Below, in pieces: positions 5,816-30,041 of a stretch of DNA of 57,702 nt. This DNA is from Acidimicrobiia bacterium. GTDB taxonomy: Bacteria > Actinomycetota > Acidimicrobiia > Acidimicrobiales > JANYDT01. A program made the translations under genes and the position numbers. The DNA is taken from contig JANOHI010000022.1 in the NCBI GenBank assembly GCA_031406385.1, positions 1 to 57,702 on the forward strand, in the 5' to 3' direction. The notes under the pieces were generated by a model. The model saw nothing but the letters and a program-made list of their open reading frames with translations. It searched no databases and was not told the origin of the DNA. Numbering within the stretch: the stretch's first letter is position 1; each line of letters starts with the position of its first letter.

Positions 5816-6062
5816 GCCTGGAACCGTAGGGACCTGGGGTTTCCCGGCAATACCGTCGATATGAACACTGCGTTTCCAGCCCGTTCGGCAGCGAGCGGCG
5901 GGGCTCGTTCGCTCGCGAAGTTCGGGGTTTGCGTTGCTCTCAGAGGTTCCATGCCGCTGGCGCAGCACCACGACGTGATGAGAATGGCCGGACGCGTCTC
6001 GCGTTTCCCCTGGTCAGCGCGTGGCGCCGTTCTATTCTCCTTACAGCAACTCAAGCCCCGAA

Positions 6063-7775
6063 CTACGACAGGTCGTGAGCTTCGAAGACGGGTGTGGGGC
6101 GGGCCATGCCCTTCAACTCGACTTCTCCGATGCGGTCGGCCCGCAAGGCGTCCCCGAGCATGGCGACGACGCGATCGGACACCAGGATCTGCCCGCCCCT
6201 GGCCTCGCCGCACAGGCGCGCCGCGAGATTCACCACGCTGCCGATGGCGGTGTATTCAAAGCGGCCTTCGAACCCGATCTGTCCGCAGGTGGCGTACCCC
6301 GCGGCCACACCGACTCCGAGGGTGAGGTCGTGGCCGCGCGTCTTCCATCGCTCCGACAGCCGACCCACCCGTTCACGCATGCCGATGGCCAACGTGATGG
6401 CACGGCGCGCCGGGTCGTCGCATGGAATCGGGTCGTTGAAGAACACCATCATGCCATCGCCGGTGAACTGGCTCAGGGTGCCGCCCTGCTCGAAGATAAG
6501 TGGACCTACGGCATCGTGCATCTCGCGCAACACCTCCATCACGTCCTCCGGCTCTGAGCGTTCGGCGAAGGACGTGAAGCCACGGAGGTCGCAGAACAAC
6601 GCGGTGATGTCGCGACGATGGCTCTTGAGCAGATCCACTCCGCCTGCCGCGATCACCTCCATCAGTTGCGGGGGGACGAAGCGCTGCATGAGGTTGAGTT
6701 GTTCGACCTTGCGCACCTGGTCGGCGACGCGCGCTTCCAGCTGTTGATTCCATGTGTGGAGTTCGGCGGCCTGCGCCTCGACCTGTGCGAGGAGTGCCTG
6801 TTCGCCGTCGCGCAGTCGCTTTTTCTCCACGCACGCACCGACGCGAGCCTTGAGGAGCACCGGGTCAAACGGCTTGGGAAGGTAGTCCTCGGCCCCGGCC
6901 TCGATACACCGCACGATGCTCGCCATGTCGTCGAGGGCCGAGATCATGATGACGGGGATGTGGCGGATCGCCGGGTCGTTGCGGTGCCGTTCGAGCACGG
7001 CGAACCCGTCCATGCGGGGCATCATCACGTCGAGCAGCACGAGATCGATCCCGGAGTCGGGCTCGGCGAGACGTTCGAGGGCTTCGATGCCGTCGCGGGC
7101 CTCGATGACGCCGTAGCCGAGCCGCTGCAGCCGTCGGCCCAGGACGTCTCGGTTCGCCTCGTCGTCGTCGACCACCAGGACCATCTCCAGCCGACCGGCC
7201 GCGGCCTCGGGTGTGCTTCCGGTGTCGCGGCTGACGAGAAGAGGGCCGCTGGTGAGCCGGGTGGCCAGCTCGCCGAGACGCGCTGTGGCCGAGGCGAGGC
7301 GTTCGAGGTCGGCGACGGGCAGGGCCCCGGGCTCGGCGAGAAGCGCCTTGGTCATGGTCGTCAGCTCATCGACCCTGTTCGTAAGCGTGCTTATGGCCTC
7401 AGTGGCCGCGGTGCCGACCGACTCGCCGTCCTCGGCGATGAGGCCGGGCACGAGTTCCAGCACGAGCCGCGCGGTGGCCCGGACGGCGTCGAGCTGTTGT
7501 GTCGTTGCGGCCGTGATGCCGTCTTCTTCGAGGAGGAGCTCGGAATAGCCGATCAGGTGGTTGACGGGCGTTCGCAGCTCGTGGCGCAGTTCCCGGATCT
7601 CGTCCGGAGTCATGGTTTGGTGGGTGGCGTCGTGAGGGGTCCGGCGGTGCTGGAGCAGCGAAGCGGAGGCGCATCGCGCCGTAGTGGCGAAGTCATGGTT
7701 TGGTGGGTTGTTCGGTGAGCGCGCTGGTGTCGCGAGCGCTGGCGCCGGGTTCATCTGCGGTGTCACGCCGAGCAC
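6063..7775 (-). CDS. H-box (HisKA-like, no ATPase domain) + receiver + coiled coil + class III adenylate/guanylate cyclase
   Basis: N-terminal H-box: RHELRTPVNHLIGYSELLLEE (His codon 7581-7583) followed by about 110 helical residues with no HATPase_c. Receiver: MVLVVDDDEANR...LVLLDVMMPRMDG...DYLPKPF. Cyclase: FCDLRGFTSF...FTGDGMMVFFNDP...VVNLAARL. An alternative start is the ATG at 7613 (MTPDEIREL). Confidence 0.85.
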   Translation of the reverse strand: MLGVTPQMNPAPALATPARSPNNPPNHDFATTARCASASLLQHRRTPHDATHQTMTPDEIRELRHELRTPVNHLIGYSELLLEEDGITAATTQQLDAVRATARLVLELVPGLIAEDGESVGTAATEAISTLTNRVDELTTMTKALLAEPGALPVADLERLASATARLGELATRLTSGPLLVSRDTGSTPEAAAGRLEMVLVVDDDEANRDVLGRRLQRLGYGVIEARDGIEALERLAEPDSGIDLVLLDVMMPRMDGFAVLERHRNDPAIRHIPVIMISALDDMASIVRCIEAGAEDYLPKPFDPVLLKARVGACVEKKRLRDGEQALLAQVEAQAAELHTWNQQLEARVADQVRKVEQLNLMQRFVPPQLMEVIAAGGVDLLKSHRRDITALFCDLRGFTSFAERSEPEDVMEVLREMHDAVGPLIFEQGGTLSQFTGDGMMVFFNDPIPCDDPARRAITLAIGMRERVGRLSERWKTRGHDLTLGVGVAAGYATCGQIGFEGRFEYTAIGSVVNLAARLCGEARGGQILVSDRVVAMLGDALRADRIGEVELKGMARPTPVFEAHDLS

Positions 7776-7781
7776 TCGACC

Positions 7782-8162
7782 TCATGGCGCGACCGGCTCG
7801 GTGACTCCGAGTGCAGCCATCTTCGCCAGTAGTCGGGGGAGGTCGACCGGCTTGGTGTCGTAGTCGTCGCAGCCCGCCTCCATCGCCTTCTCCCGATCGC
7901 CGGGCATGGAATGAGCCGTGAGGGCGATGACCGGGATGGCCTCGGTGGAGGCGTCGGCCCGAACCGCCCGGGTGGCCTCCCAGCCGTTCATGATCGGCAG
8001 GCTCATGTCCATCAGGATGAGGTCGGGACGCTCCGTCTTCGACATGGCCACGCCCTCGGCTCCGTCGACGGCCATCACCACCGTGAACCCGCGCCGCTCC
8101 AGCCGCCGCGACAGCATGTCGCGGTTCATCTCGTTGTCCTCGACGATCAAGATCTTCGGCAT
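7782..8162 (-). CDS. single-domain response regulator (CheY-like receiver)
   Basis: Receiver motifs: MPKILIVEDNEMNRDML...LILMDMSLPIMNG...ALTAH...DYDTKP. I use the ATG at 8162 rather than the track start at 8180. The stop lies 6 nt upstream of the cyclase ORF start. Confidence 0.85.
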   Translation of the reverse strand: MPKILIVEDNEMNRDMLSRRLERRGFTVVMAVDGAEGVAMSKTERPDLILMDMSLPIMNGWEATRAVRADASTEAIPVIALTAHSMPGDREKAMEAGCDDYDTKPVDLPRLLAKMAALGVTEPVAP

Positions 8163-8197
8163 CGCCCTTGAGTAAACCACCTCCCGGGTCGGGGTTT

Positions 8198-8240
8198 GGA
8201 AGATTCGTGGCGCTGGGCGCTACAAATCCTCCGAACCCTC
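8198..8240. repeat. left copy of a 43-nt direct repeat bracketing the DUF559-like gene of module 1
   Basis: ggaagattcgtggcgctgggcgctacaaatcctccgaaccctc matches 9226-9268 at 34/43 positions without gaps (hand count). The stop codon (cta on the plus strand) sits at the same offset in both copies. Confidence 0.75.
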
Positions 8241-9173
8241 AGCCAAGAGACGCCGCAGTGCGACGACCGTGCGGCGGAACGAGGCTCGATTCACCAGATC
8301 CCGGTCGGTCGCTTCGACGACTCGCCAGCGATGTGCAACGAGCAGGCGCCGCCGCTCGGCGTCGCGCTCCTGCGTGCGGCGGGACCCGTGGGTGAAGAAG
8401 GGGCTGACCTCAAGCGCCAACCGATCGTCATCCCAGGCAAAGTCAACCTCGACCACCTTCCCGCCACCGACCGGCACCCTGTAGTTGCGTTTCCACCCGC
8501 CCAGCCCGGCATCGTCGAGCCATCGACCGACGGTCTGCTCCTTGCCGCTTCGGTGGCCGATGCCAGTCGATCGGGCGTCGAGCAACCCGACGAGAAGCCG
8601 TCGGTTTCGAATCGACGATGGCGCTACGGATTCCAGCGCGGAACGAAGGGTCTCGACGCTGACCAGGCGATGGGCGAGGCAGTGGTCAAGGCACCGCTCG
8701 ACGACGGCCGCGTCGACGAACCGAGGGAGCAGGAGCAGCGTCGAGGCGGGCGTGGCCACATGGGTCGTCATCCATGACTGCCGCTGTGTTGAGCTCTGAC
8801 GTATGGTGGCGATCCCACGCAAGGTCACCCTCTGGTCGGTCGGAATGCTCAGCAGCTTCGGTGCGTCGGGATGCAGGAATCGCTGAGGTAGGGGCATCTG
8901 GTGGACGACGGCGGCGGAGACTCCGGCGATCGTCGAGCCAGGCACCGCAAGAGATGCTGCGAGGATGCCTTGCCTCGCACTCGGTGGCACGGCGGCGAGG
9001 CGCATCACGCCCGTATGGACGGGGACGAGCAGTCCGGCCTGTTGACGGCGGGAAAGCGCCGACCTGTCGATTCCGCGCTGCAACGCCTGGTCGACGGAGA
9101 TCAGACCCAGCTGGCGACGAGCAACGCGGTGCAGCAACTCGTCGATCTCGAAGGTGGAGTGAGCGCCTCGCAT
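8220..9173 (-). CDS. AbiEi-like winged-helix N-terminal domain + DUF559/Vsr-like C-terminal domain protein
   Basis: The N-terminus (LGLISVDQALQRGIDRSALSRRQQAGLLVPVHTGV) resembles AbiEi_4-type wHTH domains. The C-terminus (VVEVDFAWDDDRLALEVSPFFTHGSRRTQERDAERRRLLVAHRWRVVEAT) resembles DUF559/very-short-patch-repair-endonuclease-like folds. It is a paralog of 21611..22555. Confidence 0.7.
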   Translation of the reverse strand: MRGAHSTFEIDELLHRVARRQLGLISVDQALQRGIDRSALSRRQQAGLLVPVHTGVMRLAAVPPSARQGILAASLAVPGSTIAGVSAAVVHQMPLPQRFLHPDAPKLLSIPTDQRVTLRGIATIRQSSTQRQSWMTTHVATPASTLLLLPRFVDAAVVERCLDHCLAHRLVSVETLRSALESVAPSSIRNRRLLVGLLDARSTGIGHRSGKEQTVGRWLDDAGLGGWKRNYRVPVGGGKVVEVDFAWDDDRLALEVSPFFTHGSRRTQERDAERRRLLVAHRWRVVEATDRDLVNRASFRRTVVALRRLLAEGSEDL

Positions 9174-9225
9174 GGCCGCCCACTCTTGCGGCAGCGGTGT
9201 GACACTTCCGGCAGGCCGAGGATTC

Positions 9226-9247
9226 GGAAGTTTCGTAGCTCCCAGCG

Positions 9248-9268
<21 letters not shown>
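9226..9268. repeat. right copy of the 43-nt direct repeat (covers the last codons and stop of kinase 1)
   Basis: The sequence is ggaagtttcgtagctcccagcgctacaaatgttccaaaccctc (see 8198..8240). Kinase 1 ends ...EGLEHL* and the DUF559-like protein ends ...EGSEDL*. Confidence 0.75.
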
Positions 9269-15850
<6,582 letters not shown>

Positions 15851-15904
15851 TCGGGTCCTTCGTGGGTCCGAACTTCCGGTGGGGACCTTTGTCCACCAAC
15901 TTGC

Positions 15905-15951
15905 GTTCAGCAAACCACGCCCCGACCCACAACACTGTGATCCGGATCACA
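15905..15951 (-). promoter_or_regulatory. candidate CRP/GlxR-dependent promoter of kinase 1: perfect TGTGATCCGGATCACA palindrome + 16 nt + CGTGGTTTGCTGAAC (extended -10-like TGgTTTGCT)
   Basis: The palindrome spans 15936-15951 (TGTGA-N6-TCACA, perfect). The 15-mer at 15905-15919 is identical to the one at 30070-30084. If TTTGCT (15914-15909) is the -10 hexamer, the palindrome centre falls at about -41.5. Confidence 0.55.
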
Positions 15952-16040: not shown

Positions 16041-17345
16041 TCAGTCGAGCGACGAGCCATGCCCGGACCCAGCGAGCGTCGCCACGGGGACGACGTCGAT
16101 CTGGTCGCTGAGCGCATATCCGCGTGCTCCTGGGTAGTAGACGGTGAGCCGGTCGAGCTTGAGGTCCGTGAGAGCGGCTCGCATCGACGGCGTGATTCGC
16201 GGAGCGTCGGTCCGCTTCACCTCGATACCGATGCGCTGGTCGCCTCGAACGAGCAGGAGGTCGAGCTCGGCGCCGTTGCTCGTTCGCCAGAAGTATGGCG
16301 TCATCAACGGGTCATGACGTCGAATGCATTCTTCGATGACCGCGCCCTCCCACGTTGCACCCGATCGTGGGTGCCGCAGCAACGCCACGCGGTCGTCGAT
16401 GCCGAGGAGTGAGTGAGCGACACCCGAATCTCGGAAGTACACCTTCGGCGAGCGGACTTGGCGCTTGTCGAGATTCTCGTGCCATGGACGGAGGACTCGG
16501 GTCAGCATCGCATCGGACAGAACATCTATGTACTTACGGACTGTTGTTTCCGCAATGCCGAGGGCACGAGCCGGCTCGGCACTGTTCCAGAGTTGCCCGT
16601 GCGCGTGAGCAACAAGCGCGAGAAAGCGCTCGATCGTCGCCGCCGGAAGACCCAATCCGAAATCCGGGAGGTCTCGTGAGGAGAGTGTCCGGATGTAGTT
16701 GGTACGCCAGCGCACCGACGAGAGCTCATCGTCGGCCAGGTACGCCCGGGGAAATCCGCCCCGGAGCCACAACTCGTCGAAGTGATCAGCTCCGACATCG
16801 GCAAGAGAGAAGCCTCCGAGTTCGATCACCTCGAGTCGACCGGCGAGAGATTCCGACGCCTGGCGAAGCGCGGCCGGTGACGCGCTTCCGAGGACCAGGA
16901 ATCGTGCCGGACTGCCGGTTCGGTCAGCGAGCACTCGCAACACTGGGAACAGGTCCGGCCGTCGTTGTATCTCGTCGATGACGATGGTTCCTCGGAGGTT
17001 TTCGAGCGCCAGCATCGGCTCATCGAGACGGGCCAGGTCACGCGGGTCTTCGAGGTCGAAGTATGACTCGCCGCCCGCCGGTACGACGTTGCGGGAGAGG
17101 GTCGTTTTGCCGGTCTGACGAGCGCCGACGAGAAGGACGACGGGACTCCGAGCGAGCGCCGCGCCCAGCATGGCTTGGGCATCATTCCGAGGAATCACCC
17201 GGGTGAGTGTACCATGCAATACAGCGTCCAGCGCGGGGAATTGATTGGTGTAGAGGTGACGGGGGAAGACCCGTACCGCGACTGCTGGCACAAGCTCGCA
17301 GCGCGAACCCATTGGGCGGAGGCTGGTCTGTGCGACGTGCGTCAC
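16041..17345 (-). CDS. AAA+ ATPase of the AAA_14/DUF4143 type
   Basis: Walker A is LLVGARQTGKTTL and Walker B-like is TIVIDEIQR. The C-terminal part has the DUF4143-like pattern (YFRDSGVAHSLLG...GATWEGAVIEE). The true start is probably downstream of the track start. Confidence 0.75.
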   Translation of the reverse strand: MTHVAQTSLRPMGSRCELVPAVAVRVFPRHLYTNQFPALDAVLHGTLTRVIPRNDAQAMLGAALARSPVVLLVGARQTGKTTLSRNVVPAGGESYFDLEDPRDLARLDEPMLALENLRGTIVIDEIQRRPDLFPVLRVLADRTGSPARFLVLGSASPAALRQASESLAGRLEVIELGGFSLADVGADHFDELWLRGGFPRAYLADDELSSVRWRTNYIRTLSSRDLPDFGLGLPAATIERFLALVAHAHGQLWNSAEPARALGIAETTVRKYIDVLSDAMLTRVLRPWHENLDKRQVRSPKVYFRDSGVAHSLLGIDDRVALLRHPRSGATWEGAVIEECIRRHDPLMTPYFWRTSNGAELDLLLVRGDQRIGIEVKRTDAPRITPSMRAALTDLKLDRLTVYYPGARGYALSDQIDVVPVATLAGSGHGSSLD

Positions 17346-17403: not shown

Positions 17404-18504
17404 ATGTCGTCACCCGCCGCCGTCCCGCTCCCAGCCCGGATGGGCGACGTCACCCCGGCCTGGCTCACCTCGGCCCTCCAAGCGGCCGGGCACGACGTGG
17501 AGGTCGCCTCGGTCGACGCCACGCCGCTCGGCGTCGGCATCGGGATGATGTCGGGGTTGCAGAGCCTCGTCGTCACCTACGCACGCGGCACCGGCCCGGA
17601 ACGCCTTGTGCTCAAGATGCCGGCCGAGAACGACGTGAATCGCGCCGTCGCCGACCTTTACCACCTCTATGCCCGCGAGACCCTCTTCTACCGCGACGTT
17701 GCCCCGAAGAGCTCGGCCTACACCCCGACCGTCTACCGTGCCGATCTCGAGGGCGACAACTTCGTCCTTGTCATGGAACACCTCACCGATTACACGCTCG
17801 GGGATCAGGTGAAGGGATGCACACTGGAGGAGACGCAGGGCGGGGTCGCCTGGCTCGCCCGTCATCATGCGTCGCTGTGGGGTCAGACCGACGATCCGAT
17901 GTTCGCCTTCCTCCCGATGGTGTCGCCGTCGTACAGCTCCGAAGGGCTGGCGCAGGGATGTGCGTTCGGTTGGGATCCGATGACCGAGCTCTTCAGCGAT
18001 GTCGTGCCTCCGCGGATCGCCGCGCTGAAGGACAGGTACCTTGCTGCGTTGCCGAAGCTGTTCGACTGGATGGCCACGCCTCCGCTCACCGTCGTGCACG
18101 GCGACTTCCGCATGGACAACCTCTTCTTCGGATCGCTGCCCGGCCAGGAGCCGCTGATCGCCGTCGACTGGCAGGGCAGCCTTCGAGGACGCGCATCGCA
18201 GGACATCGCCTACTTCTTCAGTGGCAGCCTCCCCGTCGAGATTCGTCGCGAACATGAACGCGCGCTTATCAATCAGTGGCACGCCGGTCTCGTCGCCGGC
18301 GGCGTCACGGGCTTCAGTGCCGACGAGGCGTGGGAGGACTACCGCAAGGCCGTGCTCTACGTCTGGATCATGGCGGTCGTGATCGCGGGGACGCTTGATC
18401 CGACCAACGAGCGCGGTCGCCAGTGGATCTCCGTCATGCTTGAACGCTCGATCGCCGCCATCGACGACCTCGACCTTGTGTCGCTGATGGACGAGATGGC
18501 CTGA
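17404..18504 (+). CDS. phosphotransferase-family protein (APH/ecdysteroid-kinase-like fold)
   Basis: The catalytic-loop motif VVHGDFRMDNLFF and the downstream IAVDWQG are typical of the aminoglycoside/choline-kinase-like superfamily. The antisense 387-aa ORF has no motifs. Confidence 0.8.
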   Translation: MSSPAAVPLPARMGDVTPAWLTSALQAAGHDVEVASVDATPLGVGIGMMSGLQSLVVTYARGTGPERLVLKMPAENDVNRAVADLYHLYARETLFYRDVAPKSSAYTPTVYRADLEGDNFVLVMEHLTDYTLGDQVKGCTLEETQGGVAWLARHHASLWGQTDDPMFAFLPMVSPSYSSEGLAQGCAFGWDPMTELFSDVVPPRIAALKDRYLAALPKLFDWMATPPLTVVHGDFRMDNLFFGSLPGQEPLIAVDWQGSLRGRASQDIAYFFSGSLPVEIRREHERALINQWHAGLVAGGVTGFSADEAWEDYRKAVLYVWIMAVVIAGTLDPTNERGRQWISVMLERSIAAIDDLDLVSLMDEMA

Positions 18505-18508
18505 GCCG

Positions 18509-19294
18509 ATGGGAATGTTCGATGGCCGCGTCGCCCTTGTCACCGGTGGCGGACGGGGGATAGGCCGCGGCATCTCGCTGCTTCTCGCCCGGGAGGGTGC
18601 CGTCGTCGCGGTGAATTACGCGAAGGACGCATCTGCGGCCGACGAAACCGTCGCCGCAATTCGCGCGGCCGGAGGTGAGGCCAAGGCGTATGCCGCCGAC
18701 GTCGCCGACCCCGACGCCGACGCGGCGATGGTCGACGCCGTGACGGCTGACTGCGGCCCGCTCGACCTGCTCGTGAACAACGCTGGCGTCGCGTCCCGGG
18801 GCCGTTCGGTCGCCGATACCGCGGCGGACGAGGCCGAGCGGTTGCTCCGTATCCATGCCATCGGCCCGCACCACCTGTGCCGGGTCGCACTGCCGGCGAT
18901 GCGCGAGCGGGCGGCGGAGCGTGGCCGCGCCGACATCGTCTTCATCTCCAGTGCAGCCACCGACAGCTATGCAGCGAACGGTGCTCCGTACAGCATGGGC
19001 AAGGCGGCGATGGAGGCGTTGGCGTTCACCCTGGCGAAGGAAGAGGTCGGAAACAAGATCCACGTGAACGTCGTCGCCCCGGGTCTCGTGGTGAGCGACA
19101 TGGGTCGCCGCCTCGCCAAAGCGGCGACCGGCGTGACCGACATCCACGAGCTCGATGCCCGGTTCCCGTTCGGTCGGGTGTGCGAGCCCGAAGATGTCGC
19201 CCGAGTCGTCGGGTTCGTCTGCTCCGACGCCTCGGGCTACGTGACCGGTGAGCGCATTCGCGTCCACGGTGGTGGGCAGATGCTGCGGTCCTAA
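18509..19294 (+). CDS. SDR-family oxidoreductase (FabG-like)
   Basis: Motifs: VTGGGRGIGRGI (TGxxxGxG), NNAG, and YSMGKAA (YxxxK). Confidence 0.9.
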   Translation: MGMFDGRVALVTGGGRGIGRGISLLLAREGAVVAVNYAKDASAADETVAAIRAAGGEAKAYAADVADPDADAAMVDAVTADCGPLDLLVNNAGVASRGRSVADTAADEAERLLRIHAIGPHHLCRVALPAMRERAAERGRADIVFISSAATDSYAANGAPYSMGKAAMEALAFTLAKEEVGNKIHVNVVAPGLVVSDMGRRLAKAATGVTDIHELDARFPFGRVCEPEDVARVVGFVCSDASGYVTGERIRVHGGGQMLRS

Positions 19295-19333
19295 GGGTCC
19301 ACGCGGCATTTTCGGTCGAAGTTCGCAGGATTT

Positions 19334-19350
19334 GTTGCTTCCGCAGCAAC
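19334..19350. terminator. hairpin between convergent genes (GTTGCT-tccgc-AGCAAC)
   Basis: A 6-bp stem with a 5-nt loop lies in the 87-nt gap between the SDR gene (+) and cyclase 2 (-). There is no U-tract, so it is only a weak terminator candidate. Confidence 0.3.
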
Positions 19351-19381
19351 GCAGACCCCGAACTCCGGAGTCGAGCACGAC

Positions 19382-20488
19382 TCAGTCGAGGAGGCGGACG
19401 ATCTCCAGGATCGGCACCGGGCGGGTGAGGCCCTTGAAGTCGGTGTCGCCGAGTGAGCGGGCCTCGACCCGGTCTTCCACTGCAGCGTGCACGCGGTTCG
19501 TCACCAGGATCTGCCCGCCGGGGGCGATGCCGCACACCCGGGCGGCGAGATTTACCACGGTGCCGATCGCGGTGTATTCGGTGCGGCCCTCGAACCCGAT
19601 CTCGCCGCACGTCGCAAAGCCCAGCGCGATGCCGATACCGAGGGTGAGCTCGTGTCCCCGACGCCGCCATGCCGTGGACAGCTCGGCGGTGCGCTCGCGC
19701 ATGTCGATGGCGAGCTGGACGGCGTTCCACGACGGATCGTCGAGCTTGACCGGGTCGTTGAAGAACACCAGCATGCCGTCGCCGGTGAACTGGGCGATGG
19801 TGCCGTCATAGTCGAAGATCATCGGGCCGACGGCTTCGTGGAACTCGCGCAGCACGGCCATGACCTCTTCGGGTTCGGCCGTCTCTGAGAACGATGTGAA
19901 GCCGCGCAGGTCGCAGAACAGCACGGTGATCTCGCGTCGATGGCTGGCCAGGATCGACTCGCCGCCGCTGGCGATCGCCTCGGCCAACTGGGGGCTGACG
20001 AAGCGACGCAGCATGGTGAGCCGTTCCACCTCGCGGACCTTCTCGTCGACCCGCTCCGCCAGGTGCTCGTTGAGGTCGCGCAGCTCGTCGGTCATCCGCT
20101 TCTTCTCGACGCAGGCACCGATGCGGGCATGGAGCAGCACAGGATCGAAGGGCTTCGGTAGATAGTCCTCGGCGCCGAGCTTGATGCAGGCGATGATCGA
20201 CGCCATCTCCTCCACCCCGGAGATCACGATGAACGGGATCGCCTTCAGGCGCTCGTTGCCGTGACGGTGCTCGAGGAACGCGTAGCCGTCCATGACCGGC
20301 ATCTCGATGTCGGTGAGCACGACGTCGATGCGGTCGCCTTCGGCTTCGAGCACGGCCAGGCCCTCGTGGGCGTTGCCGGCCTCGAGCACCGCGTAGCCGG
20401 CGTTTCCGAGCGACATCGAGAGCATCGTCCGGTTCAACGGGTCGTCATCGACGACCAACACGGTCGCAGTGGGGGCGGGTTCCGTCAT
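19382..20488 (-). CDS. receiver + coiled coil + class III adenylate/guanylate cyclase (paralog of 6063..7775, lacking the H-box domain)
   Basis: Receiver: TVLVVDDDPLNRTML...VVLTDIEMPVMDG...DYLPKPF. Cyclase: FCDLRGFTSF...FTGDGMLVFFNDP...VVNLAARV. I use the ATG at 20488 (MTEPAPT...); the track start is 20530. Confidence 0.88.
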   Translation of the reverse strand: MTEPAPTATVLVVDDDPLNRTMLSMSLGNAGYAVLEAGNAHEGLAVLEAEGDRIDVVLTDIEMPVMDGYAFLEHRHGNERLKAIPFIVISGVEEMASIIACIKLGAEDYLPKPFDPVLLHARIGACVEKKRMTDELRDLNEHLAERVDEKVREVERLTMLRRFVSPQLAEAIASGGESILASHRREITVLFCDLRGFTSFSETAEPEEVMAVLREFHEAVGPMIFDYDGTIAQFTGDGMLVFFNDPVKLDDPSWNAVQLAIDMRERTAELSTAWRRRGHELTLGIGIALGFATCGEIGFEGRTEYTAIGTVVNLAARVCGIAPGGQILVTNRVHAAVEDRVEARSLGDTDFKGLTRPVPILEIVRLLD

Positions 20489-20572
20489 GGCATGAGTCTC
20501 GCGTGCCGTTCGTGCAGGGAGCGACCCCATGGGAGCGGATGTTGCGACCCCGATGGGGGCGGAGGTTGTTCA

Positions 20573-20597
20573 CCTGGTCGCCCCCGGAGCGACCAGG
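20573..20597. repeat. degenerate third copy of the GTCGCCCCC...GGCGAC hairpin box, 3' of the SDR gene
   Basis: cctggtcgc-ccccgga-gcgaccagg forms a 9-bp stem. The flanks (cacc..., ...gacaccaagcatccgg) are alignable with the box at 21551-21600. Confidence 0.5.
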
Positions 20598-20617
20598 ACA
20601 CCAAGCATCCGGTGTGG

Positions 20618-21487
20618 CTAGCGGAGCTTGCGACCCTTCTTCTCCAACATGCGGTCGTTCACGTCCACCAGTTTCTCGCGCAGGCCGTCGGGCAGCTTGG
20701 TGATGATGCCGACGACCTTGGCGTCGGGCCCGACCAGGTAGCGAGCCTTGGGACGGGACGAGGTGAGCGCGTGCTCCACCGCCTTGGCGACGCGGTCCGC
20801 GTCGACGCCCTTTGTCTTTCCGTGCTCGACGAATGCCCGCTGGCCATCCAGGATGAAGCCGTAGCGATCGCGGAGTCGGCCGGTGAGCCGAGCCTCGCTG
20901 CTGGCCAGGGAATCCTCCCCCTTTTCCCAGATCGCCGTCTTGATCTCGCCCGGTTCGACCACCGACGAACGCATCTTGGTGTTCCGTGACAGTTCGCCAC
21001 GCAGTGCCCAGTTGAACGCCGAGACGGCATGTTTGCTCGCGGCGTACGGTCCGAGGCCCGCTGCAGCGATACGGCCGGCGATCGATCCTATGTGTACGAA
21101 CCTTCCGTCGGCCTTGTCGACAAGTGGCATGGCCTCGCGGGTGAGGGTGACGAGACTGAAGAAGTTCACGTCCATCTGCCAGCGCCACTCCTCATCGGTG
21201 AGTACTTCAGTCGGCCCGCCGACTGCGATGCCGGCGTTGTTCACGAGCCCGTTGAGCGAGCCGACCTCGGTGCCGATCTGGGTGAGAACCCGATCGACGT
21301 GCTCTCGAATGGTGACGTCGAGAATGACCGGTGTGATGTCGCCGGTGGTGGCGGCCACGAGTCGCGCGCCGTCGTCGTCTTTGCGGACACCGGCGTAGAC
21401 CTTCCACCCGTCCTTCGCGAGCCTGGCGACGCACGCGGCCCCGATCCCGGTCGAGGTGCCAGTGATGAGGACGGTCCGTGCGGGCAT
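20618..21487 (-). CDS. SDR-family oxidoreductase
   Basis: Motifs: LITGTSTGIGAA, NNAG, YAASKHA. I use the ATG at 21487, which is preceded by AAGGAG (rc of ggctccttga at 21491-21500). The track start is 21541. Confidence 0.88.
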   Translation of the reverse strand: MPARTVLITGTSTGIGAACVARLAKDGWKVYAGVRKDDDGARLVAATTGDITPVILDVTIREHVDRVLTQIGTEVGSLNGLVNNAGIAVGGPTEVLTDEEWRWQMDVNFFSLVTLTREAMPLVDKADGRFVHIGSIAGRIAAAGLGPYAASKHAVSAFNWALRGELSRNTKMRSSVVEPGEIKTAIWEKGEDSLASSEARLTGRLRDRYGFILDGQRAFVEHGKTKGVDADRVAKAVEHALTSSRPKARYLVGPDAKVVGIITKLPDGLREKLVDVNDRMLEKKGRKLR

Positions 21488-21550
21488 AGCGGCTCCTTGA
21501 TGGGCGGCGTTTTCGGTGGTGAGGCTAGTGAACGGGGACACGACGCCGAG

Positions 21551-21590
21551 ATTGGTACCTGAGTCGCCCCCAGGGCGACTCAGTGCACAA
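21551..21590. repeat. 40-nt hairpin box, copy 3' of the DUF559-like gene of module 2
   Basis: attggtacctgagtcgcccccagggcgactcagtgcacaa matches 22653-22692 at 36/40 positions. The stem is ctgagtcgccc/gggcgactcag (11 bp) with loop cca. Confidence 0.8.
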
Positions 21591-21610: not shown

Positions 21611-22555
21611 TCAGGTGAGGCCCGTGGCTCGGAGGGTGGCGACGATCCGGGCAAAGGCCCGTTCGTTCGCGAGGTCGGCATCTACCGCTTCGACGACGCG
21701 CCAAGTGGCCACGGCTAGGAGCCGTCGACGCTCTGCATCACGGTCTTGGGTGACCCGAGAGCCGTGGGTGAAGAACGGGCTCACCTCCAGGGCGACACGG
21801 TCGTTCGGCCAGCCGAAGTCGACCTCCACCTCGACGACCTGACCGGAGCTATCGATCCGCACGGAGTAGTTGCGGGTCCACCCCGTGAGGCCGGCCCGGT
21901 TCAGCCAGCGCCCGACCATTTGCTCCTTGCCGCTTCGGTGCCCGATGCCGTTGGTGCGATCGGCGAGAAGATCGAGCAGCAGCTGCCGTCGAAACACGGC
22001 GTGCGGCGCCGTGGCGTCGAGCATCGCCCGAAGGTTGGCGACCGATGTGAGGCGGTGGGCCAGGCAATGGTCGAGGCATCGCTCGACGGTGCCTGCGTCG
22101 ACGAAGCGGGGGAGCAGGAGGACTGCGGCCGCCGGCGTCGCCAGCCTGGTCGTCATCCACCTCTTGCTGGGCGGGATGATCCGTTGGCGGACGACGGTGA
22201 TCCCGGGCACGCGGACGGCCCGCCCGCTGGCCACACTCAAGACCGCCTCGTCGTGAATGACTCGGGCGGGCACGGGCATCTGGTGGACGATTGCCGCCGA
22301 GGTCGCTGCGATGACCGAACCCGGCACGGCAAGTGCGGCGCCAAGGACACGTTGTTGGGGTGTGGTGGCGAACGGCGCGAGCTTCATGACGTTGGGGTAG
22401 AGCGGCACGAGCGCTCCGGAGTCACGACGCCCGGCCAGGGCGTGCTTGTCGATGCCGCAACGAGTCGCTTGCGCGACGGTGACCAGGCCGAGTTGGTTCG
22501 ACGCGATCGCCCGGATGCGCGCGTCGAGATCGAAGGTGGATTGGAGCCGCGCCAC
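21611..22555 (-). CDS. AbiEi-like wHTH + DUF559/Vsr-like protein (paralog of 8220..9173)
   Basis: Near-identical blocks with the module 1 protein: LLLPRFVDA..VERCLDHCLAHRL, GIGHRSGKEQ.VGRWL and ALEVSPFFTHGSR.TQ.RDAERRRLL. I use the GTG at 22555 (VARLQSTFDLD..., matching MRGAHSTFEIDE... of the paralog). The track extension to 22690 runs through the hairpin box. Confidence 0.7.
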   Translation of the reverse strand: MARLQSTFDLDARIRAIASNQLGLVTVAQATRCGIDKHALAGRRDSGALVPLYPNVMKLAPFATTPQQRVLGAALAVPGSVIAATSAAIVHQMPVPARVIHDEAVLSVASGRAVRVPGITVVRQRIIPPSKRWMTTRLATPAAAVLLLPRFVDAGTVERCLDHCLAHRLTSVANLRAMLDATAPHAVFRRQLLLDLLADRTNGIGHRSGKEQMVGRWLNRAGLTGWTRNYSVRIDSSGQVVEVEVDFGWPNDRVALEVSPFFTHGSRVTQDRDAERRRLLAVATWRVVEAVDADLANERAFARIVATLRATGLT

Positions 22556-22652
22556 GGTGAACCTCCGAGAGGGTTTCGGCGTATGCAGACCCGGGAAAGG
22601 GAACGGAGAGAGTGGCCGGGCGGGTGTGACGGTTCGCCGGGGCGGGCGCGTG

Positions 22653-22692
22653 ATTGGTATCTCAGTCGCCCCCGGGGCGACTGAGTGCACAA
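22653..22692. repeat. 40-nt hairpin box, copy 3' of kinase 2
   Basis: The sequence is attggtatctcagtcgcccccggggcgactgagtgcacaa. The stem is ctcagtcgcccc/ggggcgactgag. Relative to the 21551 copy, the stem position g:c is swapped to c:g (a compensatory change). Confidence 0.8.
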
Positions 22693-22700
22693 CCTCCGGC

Positions 22701-30041
<7,341 letters not shown>

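Follow-up and report, generated by a model that had tools for sequence, protein, structure and literature searches.

How can a sensor kinase that carries neither a receiver nor a histidine phosphotransfer (HPt) domain signal to a cyclase that bears a receiver? This question is raised by a 57,702-nucleotide (nt) stretch of DNA from an Acidimicrobiia bacterium (contig JANOHI010000022.1 of assembly GCA_031406385.1; the whole stretch is hereafter called the window), in which two modules, with all their relay genes on the minus strand, each combine a giant multi-GAF histidine kinase with a receiver-cyclase. In module 1, kinase 1 (9248..15913) is composed of 11 GAF domains followed by HisKA (phospho-site His2000, codon 9914-9916) and HATPase_c, and its stop lies 8 residues past the end of HATPase_c, without receiver or HPt. 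Further downstream are the gene of a 126-residue stand-alone receiver (7782..8162; Pfam Response_reg, 6.8e-27), whose acceptor Asp is residue 52 (Asp58 in the 132-residue open reading frame, ORF), and that of cyclase 1, in which an N-terminal domain (N-domain; 7209..7613) with a HisKA H-box and no HATPase_c stands ahead of the receiver (REC) domain. This arrangement had been put forward in a preliminary description of the window and is borne out here. To our knowledge, multistep phosphorelays are thought to take their second His either from HPt domains or from the rare dimers of the Spo0B/ChpT type. The window probably holds two alternative multistep phosphorelay cassettes, each running from a giant multi-GAF kinase to one of two sister receiver-cyclases, with the path of module 1 passing through a tandem version of the kinase DHp (dimerization and histidine phosphotransfer) domain. 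Whether this ATPase-less tandem DHp ranks beside HPt and Spo0B/ChpT as a third class of histidine phosphotransfer domain with an evolutionary origin of its own, that is, a one-His pseudo-dimer with a dedicated receiver and portable outputs, is in our judgement an evenly balanced matter. If it does, phosphotransfer domains would gain a new kind, a widespread single-chain module of kinase origin that lacks an ATPase and takes the place of HPt, and the route of its origin, loss of the catalytic and ATP-binding (CA) domain plus duplication of a hairpin, would be visible.

The N-Domain of Cyclase 1

Cyclase 1 is encoded in a long ORF that opens at GTG 7775 and matches the Pfam families HisKA (residues 60-109), REC (199-312) and Guanylate_cyc (388-557). 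The true start is the ATG at 7613, which yields a protein of 516 residues, because more than 100 clusters of homologues share its length (502-520 residues) and its N-terminal H-box sequence, starting MTPEE.RELRHELRTPVNHLIGY; the start is therefore not downstream of the H-box. The N-domain is followed by the receiver domain (6840..7181; acceptor Asp195 of the 516-residue protein), which is proposed as the terminal receiver of the relay, and then by a 60-residue signalling helix and the class III catalytic domain (about 6105-6614; both within 6063..6839, with the stop codon at 6063-6065). The Pfam HisKA match on cyclase 1 reaches 28.6 bits (cut-off 26.9). A cryptic ATPase domain, for which this N-terminus had been recommended for checking, is absent from cyclase 1 by Pfam (no HATPase_c at E<=0.1) and from its ORF by a HATPase hidden Markov model (HMM) built from related loci, and the AlphaFold model consists of four helices, a linker and the receiver. 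Residues R10, H11, R14, T15, P16, N18, G22 and Y23 are invariant in 95 homologues of cyclase 1 from many phyla, as is the H-box RHELRTPVNH across the homologues. The interpretation of the N-domain as a pseudogene remnant has been rejected, since the domain is never out of frame and does not vary from phylum to phylum. Within the class it is rare, with 2 of 151 genomes carrying it.

The N-domain is made up of two helical hairpins. Hairpin 1 (7440-7607) carries the invariant His11, whose codon had been located exactly (7581-7583), and hairpin 2 (7251-7412) has lost the H-box. In the AlphaFold models (predicted local distance difference test, pLDDT, 88.5 and predicted template modelling score, pTM, 0.82 for the N-domain alone; pLDDT 89 for full-length cyclase 1), the helices span residues 3-28, 35-58, 68-93 and 100-121 and are connected to the receiver by a 22-residue linker; the predicted fold is thus a four-helix bundle built by the two hairpins of one chain. 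Foldseek aligns this model with monomeric up-down four-helix bundles at template modelling (TM) scores of 0.65-0.78 over about 120 columns. In the Foldseek search of the PDB no match reaches E<=0.001, and generic helical bundles are returned (copper storage proteins, 2rld). These matches support the modelled bundle fold and are silent on function.

In a profile search of the PDB, hairpin 1 matches the DHp domains of kinases (7z8n at 3e-11, DivL, RetS, and ShkA). On the other hand, there is no Pfam Hpt match on cyclase 1, and hhalign finds no similarity between the N-domain and a profile of 35 HPt sequences from related loci (probability 0.6%). Judged by these sequence comparisons, the N-domain is homologous to the kinase DHp and not to HPt. 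The HMMs used for the related loci were built iteratively from those same loci, and the HisKA model has probably absorbed hairpins of N-domains, which inflates the hhalign score of the N-domain against HisKA; independent support for the DHp homology is given by the Pfam and PDB matches. An internal duplication is indicated by a 43-sequence alignment, in which 7 distant members carry a second LRTP H-box in hairpin 2 (for example, HELRTPVNQIIGYSELL, which aligns where the protein of the window reads ISTLTNRVDELTTMTKAL), and in which the first half of the domain matches the second with an hhalign probability of 98.5% (E 2.6e-15). The best reading is that the N-domain is a single-chain, pseudo-dimeric DHp bundle, as modelled, of which only hairpin 1 keeps the His in the clade of the window. 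Proteins with this domain are now labelled only as "response regulator" or "adenylate cyclase", and NCBIfam gives only generic receiver matches for cyclase 1, for the stand-alone receiver and for cyclase 2 of the second module.

Gene Context of the N-Domain

The loci used for comparison come from public assemblies plus 80 genome loci and were annotated with HMMs built from them; 75 were informative. A stand-alone receiver is encoded directly upstream in 28 of the 30 loci with an N-domain, compared with 10 of the 45 receiver-cyclases without one. The reverse holds for HPt, which is found upstream in 0 of the 30 and in 32 of the 45, fused to the kinase in 10 of these and as a separate gene in 22. 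In Fisher tests that take the loci as independent and ignore phylogeny, p is about 5e-11 for HPt and about 5e-10 for the stand-alone receiver. Therefore, the N-domain appears to substitute for HPt and to travel with a dedicated small receiver. In 6 loci, the window included, the kinase has no fused receiver, and an intermediate Asp can there be supplied only by the stand-alone receiver. Apart from that of the window, a single Hpt match is present in the source genome (95% complete), inside a 567-residue frame on contig C121.

The unit formed by the N-domain and its receiver also occurs with no output, or with a TIR_2 or SpoIIE output fused to it, and in the latter two cases it still sits behind a kinase and a stand-alone receiver. 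For example, in locus L012 (10001-13171; ena ERZ25039539 contig_425) the unit is fused to TIR_2 instead of the cyclase and comes after a multi-GAF kinase and a stand-alone receiver. The adjacent genes encode another TIR_2 protein and a patatin-like phospholipase, and this variant may be a phosphorelay-controlled TIR effector. The closest relative of module 1 in the genome collection, locus L016 (CAVTJP010000005.1; 65% identity), has the same cassette with a receiver-less kinase. It lies in a 2.66-Mb contig labelled as a metagenome-assembled genome of Gammaproteobacteria, all other close relatives being Acidimicrobiia, and represents either a horizontal transfer or a mislabelled bin. Gene clusters without any His-phosphotransfer domain have also been found, in cyanobacterial and some other loci; they include L044, L045, L048, L054, L056, L059, and L080, with hybrid kinases that carry two receivers and no HPt.

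Kinship of the Receivers, Kinases and Cyclases of the Two Modules

The second module provides the term of comparison. Kinase 2 (22701..30041) has 10 GAF domains, HisKA (phospho-site His1808, codon 24618-24620), HATPase_c and, at its C-terminus, two receivers, REC1 (23562-23903; Asp2094) and REC2 (23160-23507; Asp2228), followed by an Hpt domain (22713-22958; His2394). Cyclase 2 (19382..20530; the start is likely Met14, at 20491) is a REC-cyclase only, without N-domain. The preliminary description had both proteins right, including the exact position of the Hpt His codon (22860-22862), and from them it had argued that the modules contain the same parts split differently. The first half of this argument stands, since both modules hold a His-Asp-His-Asp series, each encoded in one conserved neighbourhood (His2000, the Asp of the stand-alone receiver, His11, and Asp195 in module 1; in module 2 His1808, the pair Asp2094 and Asp2228, the HPt His2394, and the cyclase 2 receiver). 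The second half does not, as the kinases belong to separate clades, the stand-alone receiver has a clade of its own and the N-domain is not an HPt.

All the stand-alone receivers but one fall in a single clade (support of 97 in the Shimodaira-Hasegawa-like approximate likelihood ratio test, SH-aLRT), with a mean identity of 71% across phyla. The best match of the one in the window is REC2 of kinase 2 (39% identity, 1e-22), REC1 being 31% identical; overall, the mean identity of the stand-alone receivers is 39% to REC2 of the HPt-type kinases and 24-36% to the other receiver groups. The stand-alone and REC2 groups are neighbours on the unrooted tree (split support 86), and the acidic pair, the Asp, the Thr/Ser, and the Lys are retained in every receiver group. 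This likeness in sequence to the HPt-proximal REC2 agrees with a putative role as intermediate receiver. An origin by fission from REC2 of a kinase of the second type was considered and rejected, given that the stand-alone receivers form their own clade and coexist with two-receiver kinases. After beta4 the stand-alone receiver reads ALTAH, unlike the FATGUY-type motif (PMC9981736). A metagenomic protein (P0117) contains a stand-alone receiver near-identical to that of the window, joined in frame to an N-domain, after which the sequence degenerates. It is probably a frameshifted or mis-assembled junction between a receiver gene and a cyclase gene, and it confirms that these genes are neighbours.

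The transmitter cores of the kinases form two separate groups, and those linked to HPt are one clade (SH-aLRT 99). Kinase 1 and the N-domain share a signature in the helix of the H-box (LRHELRTPVNHLIGY.ELLLEE in helix 1 of the N-domain), and kinase 2 and the HPt-linked kinases carry another. Among the kinases that adjoin a stand-alone receiver, what is essentially the signature of N-domain helix 1 is present in 26 of the 28 loci listed (the exceptions are L031, with IIGVTE, and L028), and the different helix type is carried by 25 of the 25 HPt-linked kinases that could be read. Hairpin 1 aligns with the DHp of kinase 1 over both helices (39 bits) and with that of kinase 2 over helix 1 only (32 bits). 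Such a shared docking surface, as suggested by the sequences, is what would be expected if a single receiver docks both on kinase 1 and on the N-domain.

With regard to the outputs, cyclases 1 and 2 are 55% identical in their REC-cyclase parts, which form sister clades (SH-aLRT 95) nested among the cyclases that bear N-domains. A single output family has therefore been switched between the cassettes and accepts either. In summary of their kinship, the two cassettes are distinct old lineages that feed sister cyclases and not fission or fusion products of one set of parts.

A Proposed Phosphorelay and its Alternatives

In the mechanism proposed for module 1, His2000 of kinase 1 would phosphorylate Asp52 of the stand-alone receiver, which would hand the phosphate over to His11 of cyclase 1; from His11 it would pass to Asp195 in the receiver of the same cyclase, within the protein or within the dimer, and Asp195 would in turn control the class III cyclase, by activation, through the 60-residue helix. 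The phosphorylation of His11 and the order and direction of transfer are what we infer. The path from kinase 1 to the receiver, the His of the N-domain and the cyclase receiver seems well supported at the level of sequence, because the N-domain and HPt exclude each other, the receiver is paired with the N-domain, this receiver is similar to REC2, and a docking helix is held in common. Module 2 would work as a conventional relay, from His1808 to a fused receiver, probably REC2 (Asp2228), and then through His2394 of the HPt to the receiver of cyclase 2. As to its origin, the N-domain would descend from the DHp hairpin of a kinase by loss of the ATPase and tandem duplication; one chain would then form the four-helix bundle that is normally made by a kinase dimer, and would do the job of HPt without being homologous to it.

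Several observations weigh against this proposal. First, the Fisher tests disregard the phylogenetic relatedness of the loci. Second, in 16 of the 22 N-domain cassettes with a visible kinase, the kinase already has two fused and apparently functional receivers, with its end within 21 residues of REC2; therefore, the stand-alone receiver of these 16 loci is additional and need not be the intermediate. Third, about 10 loci, mainly from cyanobacteria, combine a kinase with a stand-alone receiver and a REC-cyclase, and their clusters contain no domain for His phosphotransfer. What the stand-alone receiver does is therefore in some part independent of the N-domain, the relay model gives no account of its role at these loci, and in this family direct transfer from kinase to cyclase is possible. 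Fourth, when the 36 sequences with a single H-box are compared alone, hhalign detects no significant similarity between the two halves (probability 3%, E 0.014), in the same register; because the clade of the window gives no significance by itself, the call of a duplication rests on the distant members with a second H-box. Fifth, the single-chain bundle is a prediction for a monomer, and a cyclase that is an obligate dimer allows swapped or inter-chain bundles. Sixth, the phosphatase motif of HisKA domains, H-E-x-x-T, is still present in the N-domain, and with it a role as phosphatase is possible. Finally, kinase 1 and the N-domain could owe their helix signature to common descent and not to a shared partner.

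Some of these observations can be accommodated by a branched system, in which kinase 1 would phosphorylate the receiver of cyclase 1 directly, the stand-alone receiver would be a competing phosphate sink or a separate single-domain effector, and the N-domain would serve as a scaffold for dimerisation or docking that keeps the cyclase close to the kinase or the receiver, its His being no obligatory intermediate. The loci without a His domain, whose kinases end within 21 residues of REC2, would fit such a system, and so would the receivers of the cyclases, in which no catalytic residue is lost and the identity to the stand-alone receiver is 36%; moreover, the DHp of kinase 1 has a surface in common with the N-domain, and any receiver that docks the N-domain could thus be docked by the kinase. 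However, a mere scaffold would have no need for His11 and the entire H-box to be conserved without change across 95 sequences of many phyla, and a class III cyclase already forms dimers by way of its helix and catalytic domain. The branched system also leaves aside that the N-domain and HPt are mutually exclusive at the same position of the cassette (0/30 vs. 32/45), and we regard it as unlikely, albeit deserving of attention, next to the four-step path through His11.

The phosphatase motif leads to another alternative, according to which the N-domain would be a dedicated phosphatase, or a drain working by reverse transfer, that resets the signal by acting on the stand-alone receiver or on the receiver of the cyclase. 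The DHp domain of EnvZ, like others of the HisKA type, keeps its phosphatase activity when isolated from the CA domain. The residues concerned (His, Glu at +1, and Thr at +4) are invariant in the N-domain, and the stand-alone receiver is conserved even where there is no N-domain. Yet the phosphatase activity of HisKA proteins is not strictly dependent on the His, which is invariant here, and the mutual exclusion with HPt favours a role in transfer; in addition, the 6 loci with receiver-less kinases would then need direct transfer from kinase to cyclase. For these reasons a dedicated phosphatase is considered improbable and transfer through His11 is preferred. Phosphorylation of the N-domain His in trans by the catalytic domain of kinase 1, with the stand-alone receiver downstream or as a sink, is very improbable: hairpin 1 does resemble the DHp of kinase 1 over both helices, residues around the His included, but the predicted single-chain bundle leaves no hairpin free to heterodimerise with the kinase, the near-obligate stand-alone receiver (28/30) would be unexplained, and we know of no precedent for the phosphorylation of a foreign closed bundle by a CA domain.

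Comparison with Known Phosphotransfer Systems

The relay proposed here follows the same His-Asp-His-Asp order as Spo0F-Spo0B-Spo0A in Bacillus and CckA-ChpT-CtrA/CpdR in Caulobacter. The preliminary description had implied that the N-domain acts like Spo0B or ChpT. This holds for its proposed function, as a second His derived from a kinase, but not for its architecture, which has no degenerate CA-like domain. In both cases the second His would be placed on a DHp-type hairpin of kinase origin, with no ATP-dependent autophosphorylation, and would be fed by a single-domain or intermediate receiver. Nevertheless, Spo0B and ChpT are stand-alone homodimers that keep a degenerate, CA-like alpha/beta domain, whereas the N-domain shows no CA remnant, has its hairpin duplicated in one chain and is fused N-terminally to the terminal response regulator. 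Among the PDB sequence matches of the N-domain at E<=1, ordinary kinases are present and chains of Spo0B or ChpT are absent. With HPt domains (PF01627; those of hybrid or unorthodox kinases such as ArcB, BarA and TorS, and the stand-alone Ypd1 and LuxU) the N-domain would share the monomeric four-helix bundle with one exposed His that its model predicts, and it shares the position in the cassette between a kinase with an intermediate receiver and a receiver-cyclase. It differs from them in that its His belongs to a kinase H-box (H-E-L-R-T-P) on the first helix and that it arose by duplication of a DHp hairpin. With HisKA/DHp (PF00512) it shares the H-box at the start of the hairpin but not the HATPase_c that follows. 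The N-domain is therefore outside the Spo0B/ChpT type, having no CA-like domain, and outside the HPt type, with which it has no homology.

Another example of a cyclase linked to phosphotransfer is CyaC of the cyanobacteria Spirulina and Anabaena, a class III adenylate cyclase with receiver, histidine kinase, and receiver domains that autophosphorylates. As proposed for cyclase 1, a class III cyclase is there under the control of a His-to-Asp transfer within the same polypeptide; however, CyaC has a complete kinase with its ATPase, and cyclase 1, without ATPase, must obtain its phosphate from another protein. In the general stress response of alphaproteobacteria, as outlined for PhyT/PhyK with MrrA or SdrG, a single-domain receiver shuttles phosphate from sensor kinases, and PhyT/PhyK are kinase-like phosphotransferases towards the final response regulator (PMC5898713, PMC5964349). 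In those outlines, the phosphotransferases of the PhyT/PhyK type are HWE/HisKA_2 kinase-like, possess a CA-type domain and are separate proteins, unlike the N-domain. Full-text literature searches returned no description of an ATPase-less, tandem, or single-chain DHp, nor of cyclases with such a module.

A tandem DHp may explain how the signal passes on from many hybrid kinases that have no HPt. If the proposal is correct, the variant with kinase 1 shows the minimal path, composed of kinase, stand-alone receiver, tandem DHp, and receiver-output, and the tandem-DHp cassette makes a natural orthogonal pair in one genome with the conventional HPt cassette 12 kb away, by which a sister cyclase is fed. 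The presence of sister cyclases in one genome, one per cassette, with kinases whose docking helices differ and a single possible route in module 1, where the kinase has no fused receivers, makes both the insulation of the two paths and the need for the intermediate receiver testable with a few purified domains.

Inserted Genes and Other Features of the Modules

A gene that the preliminary description had left out is located between kinase 1 and the stand-alone receiver gene. This AbiEi_4/restriction endonuclease (REase)-like ORF (DUF559-like; 317 residues, 8220..9173, minus strand), for which NCBIfam gives no match, is an insertion and stands outside the relay. Direct repeats of 58 nt, 76% identical, lie on either side of it (8192-8249 and 9220-9277); the latter takes in the 3' end of kinase 1, and the pair is consistent with the insertion of the gene between kinase 1 and the receiver gene. 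In relatives, the same gap is empty (L009, L012, and L016) or holds a Uma2 endonuclease gene (L010). Module 2 contains a second AbiEi_4/REase-like ORF (21611..22690, minus strand), 56% identical to the first and also inserted after the kinase, and an SDR gene (20618..21541, minus strand), another insertion, between the genes of kinase 2 and cyclase 2. A GC-rich hairpin box of 44 nt is found at 20561-20604, 21547-21590, and 22649-22692, after the SDR gene, the DUF559-like gene, and kinase 2, respectively, with the outer copies 89 and 61% identical to the middle one. The DUF559-like and SDR genes thus look like insertions marked by repeated boxes, as if each had brought or copied the same 44-nt 3' element.

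The SDR gene had been described as the occupant of the stand-alone receiver slot of module 2. There is no such slot, because the genes for kinases and cyclases of the module 2 type overlap by 4 nt in the relatives (L013-L015). In locus L009 (8683-9937), an SDR gene and a GFA-family gene stand between the stand-alone receiver and the N-domain cyclase. This SDR is only 34% identical to that of the window; therefore, these operons have acquired an SDR gene on more than one occasion. Equivalence of the SDR with a receiver slot has been rejected on both grounds, the low identity and the relatives of module 2 that have no gene at that place.

The region that separates the stand-alone receiver from cyclase 1 (7610..7781, minus strand) includes a 168-nt spacer (7614-7781) from the receiver stop to the cyclase start, and no Shine-Dalgarno-like sequence is seen in this spacer before the ATG of cyclase 1. 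An upstream ORF (uORF) of 28 codons runs from ATG 7696 to a TGA at 7612-7610, which overlaps the cyclase 1 ATG (ATGA), and the 16-nt repeat CCACCAAACCATGACT is present both at the ATG of the uORF and at that of cyclase 1. In the relatives L010 and L012 the receiver and cyclase genes are 5 nt apart or overlapping. Scans of 5900-9400 for consensus promoters and terminators gave no match, by which co-transcription is neither shown nor excluded. Between the two modules, long minus-strand ORFs at 17410-19378 resemble the non-coding shadow frames of high-GC DNA, and a gene for an AAA_14/DUF4143 ATPase is encoded at 16041-17345 on the minus strand.

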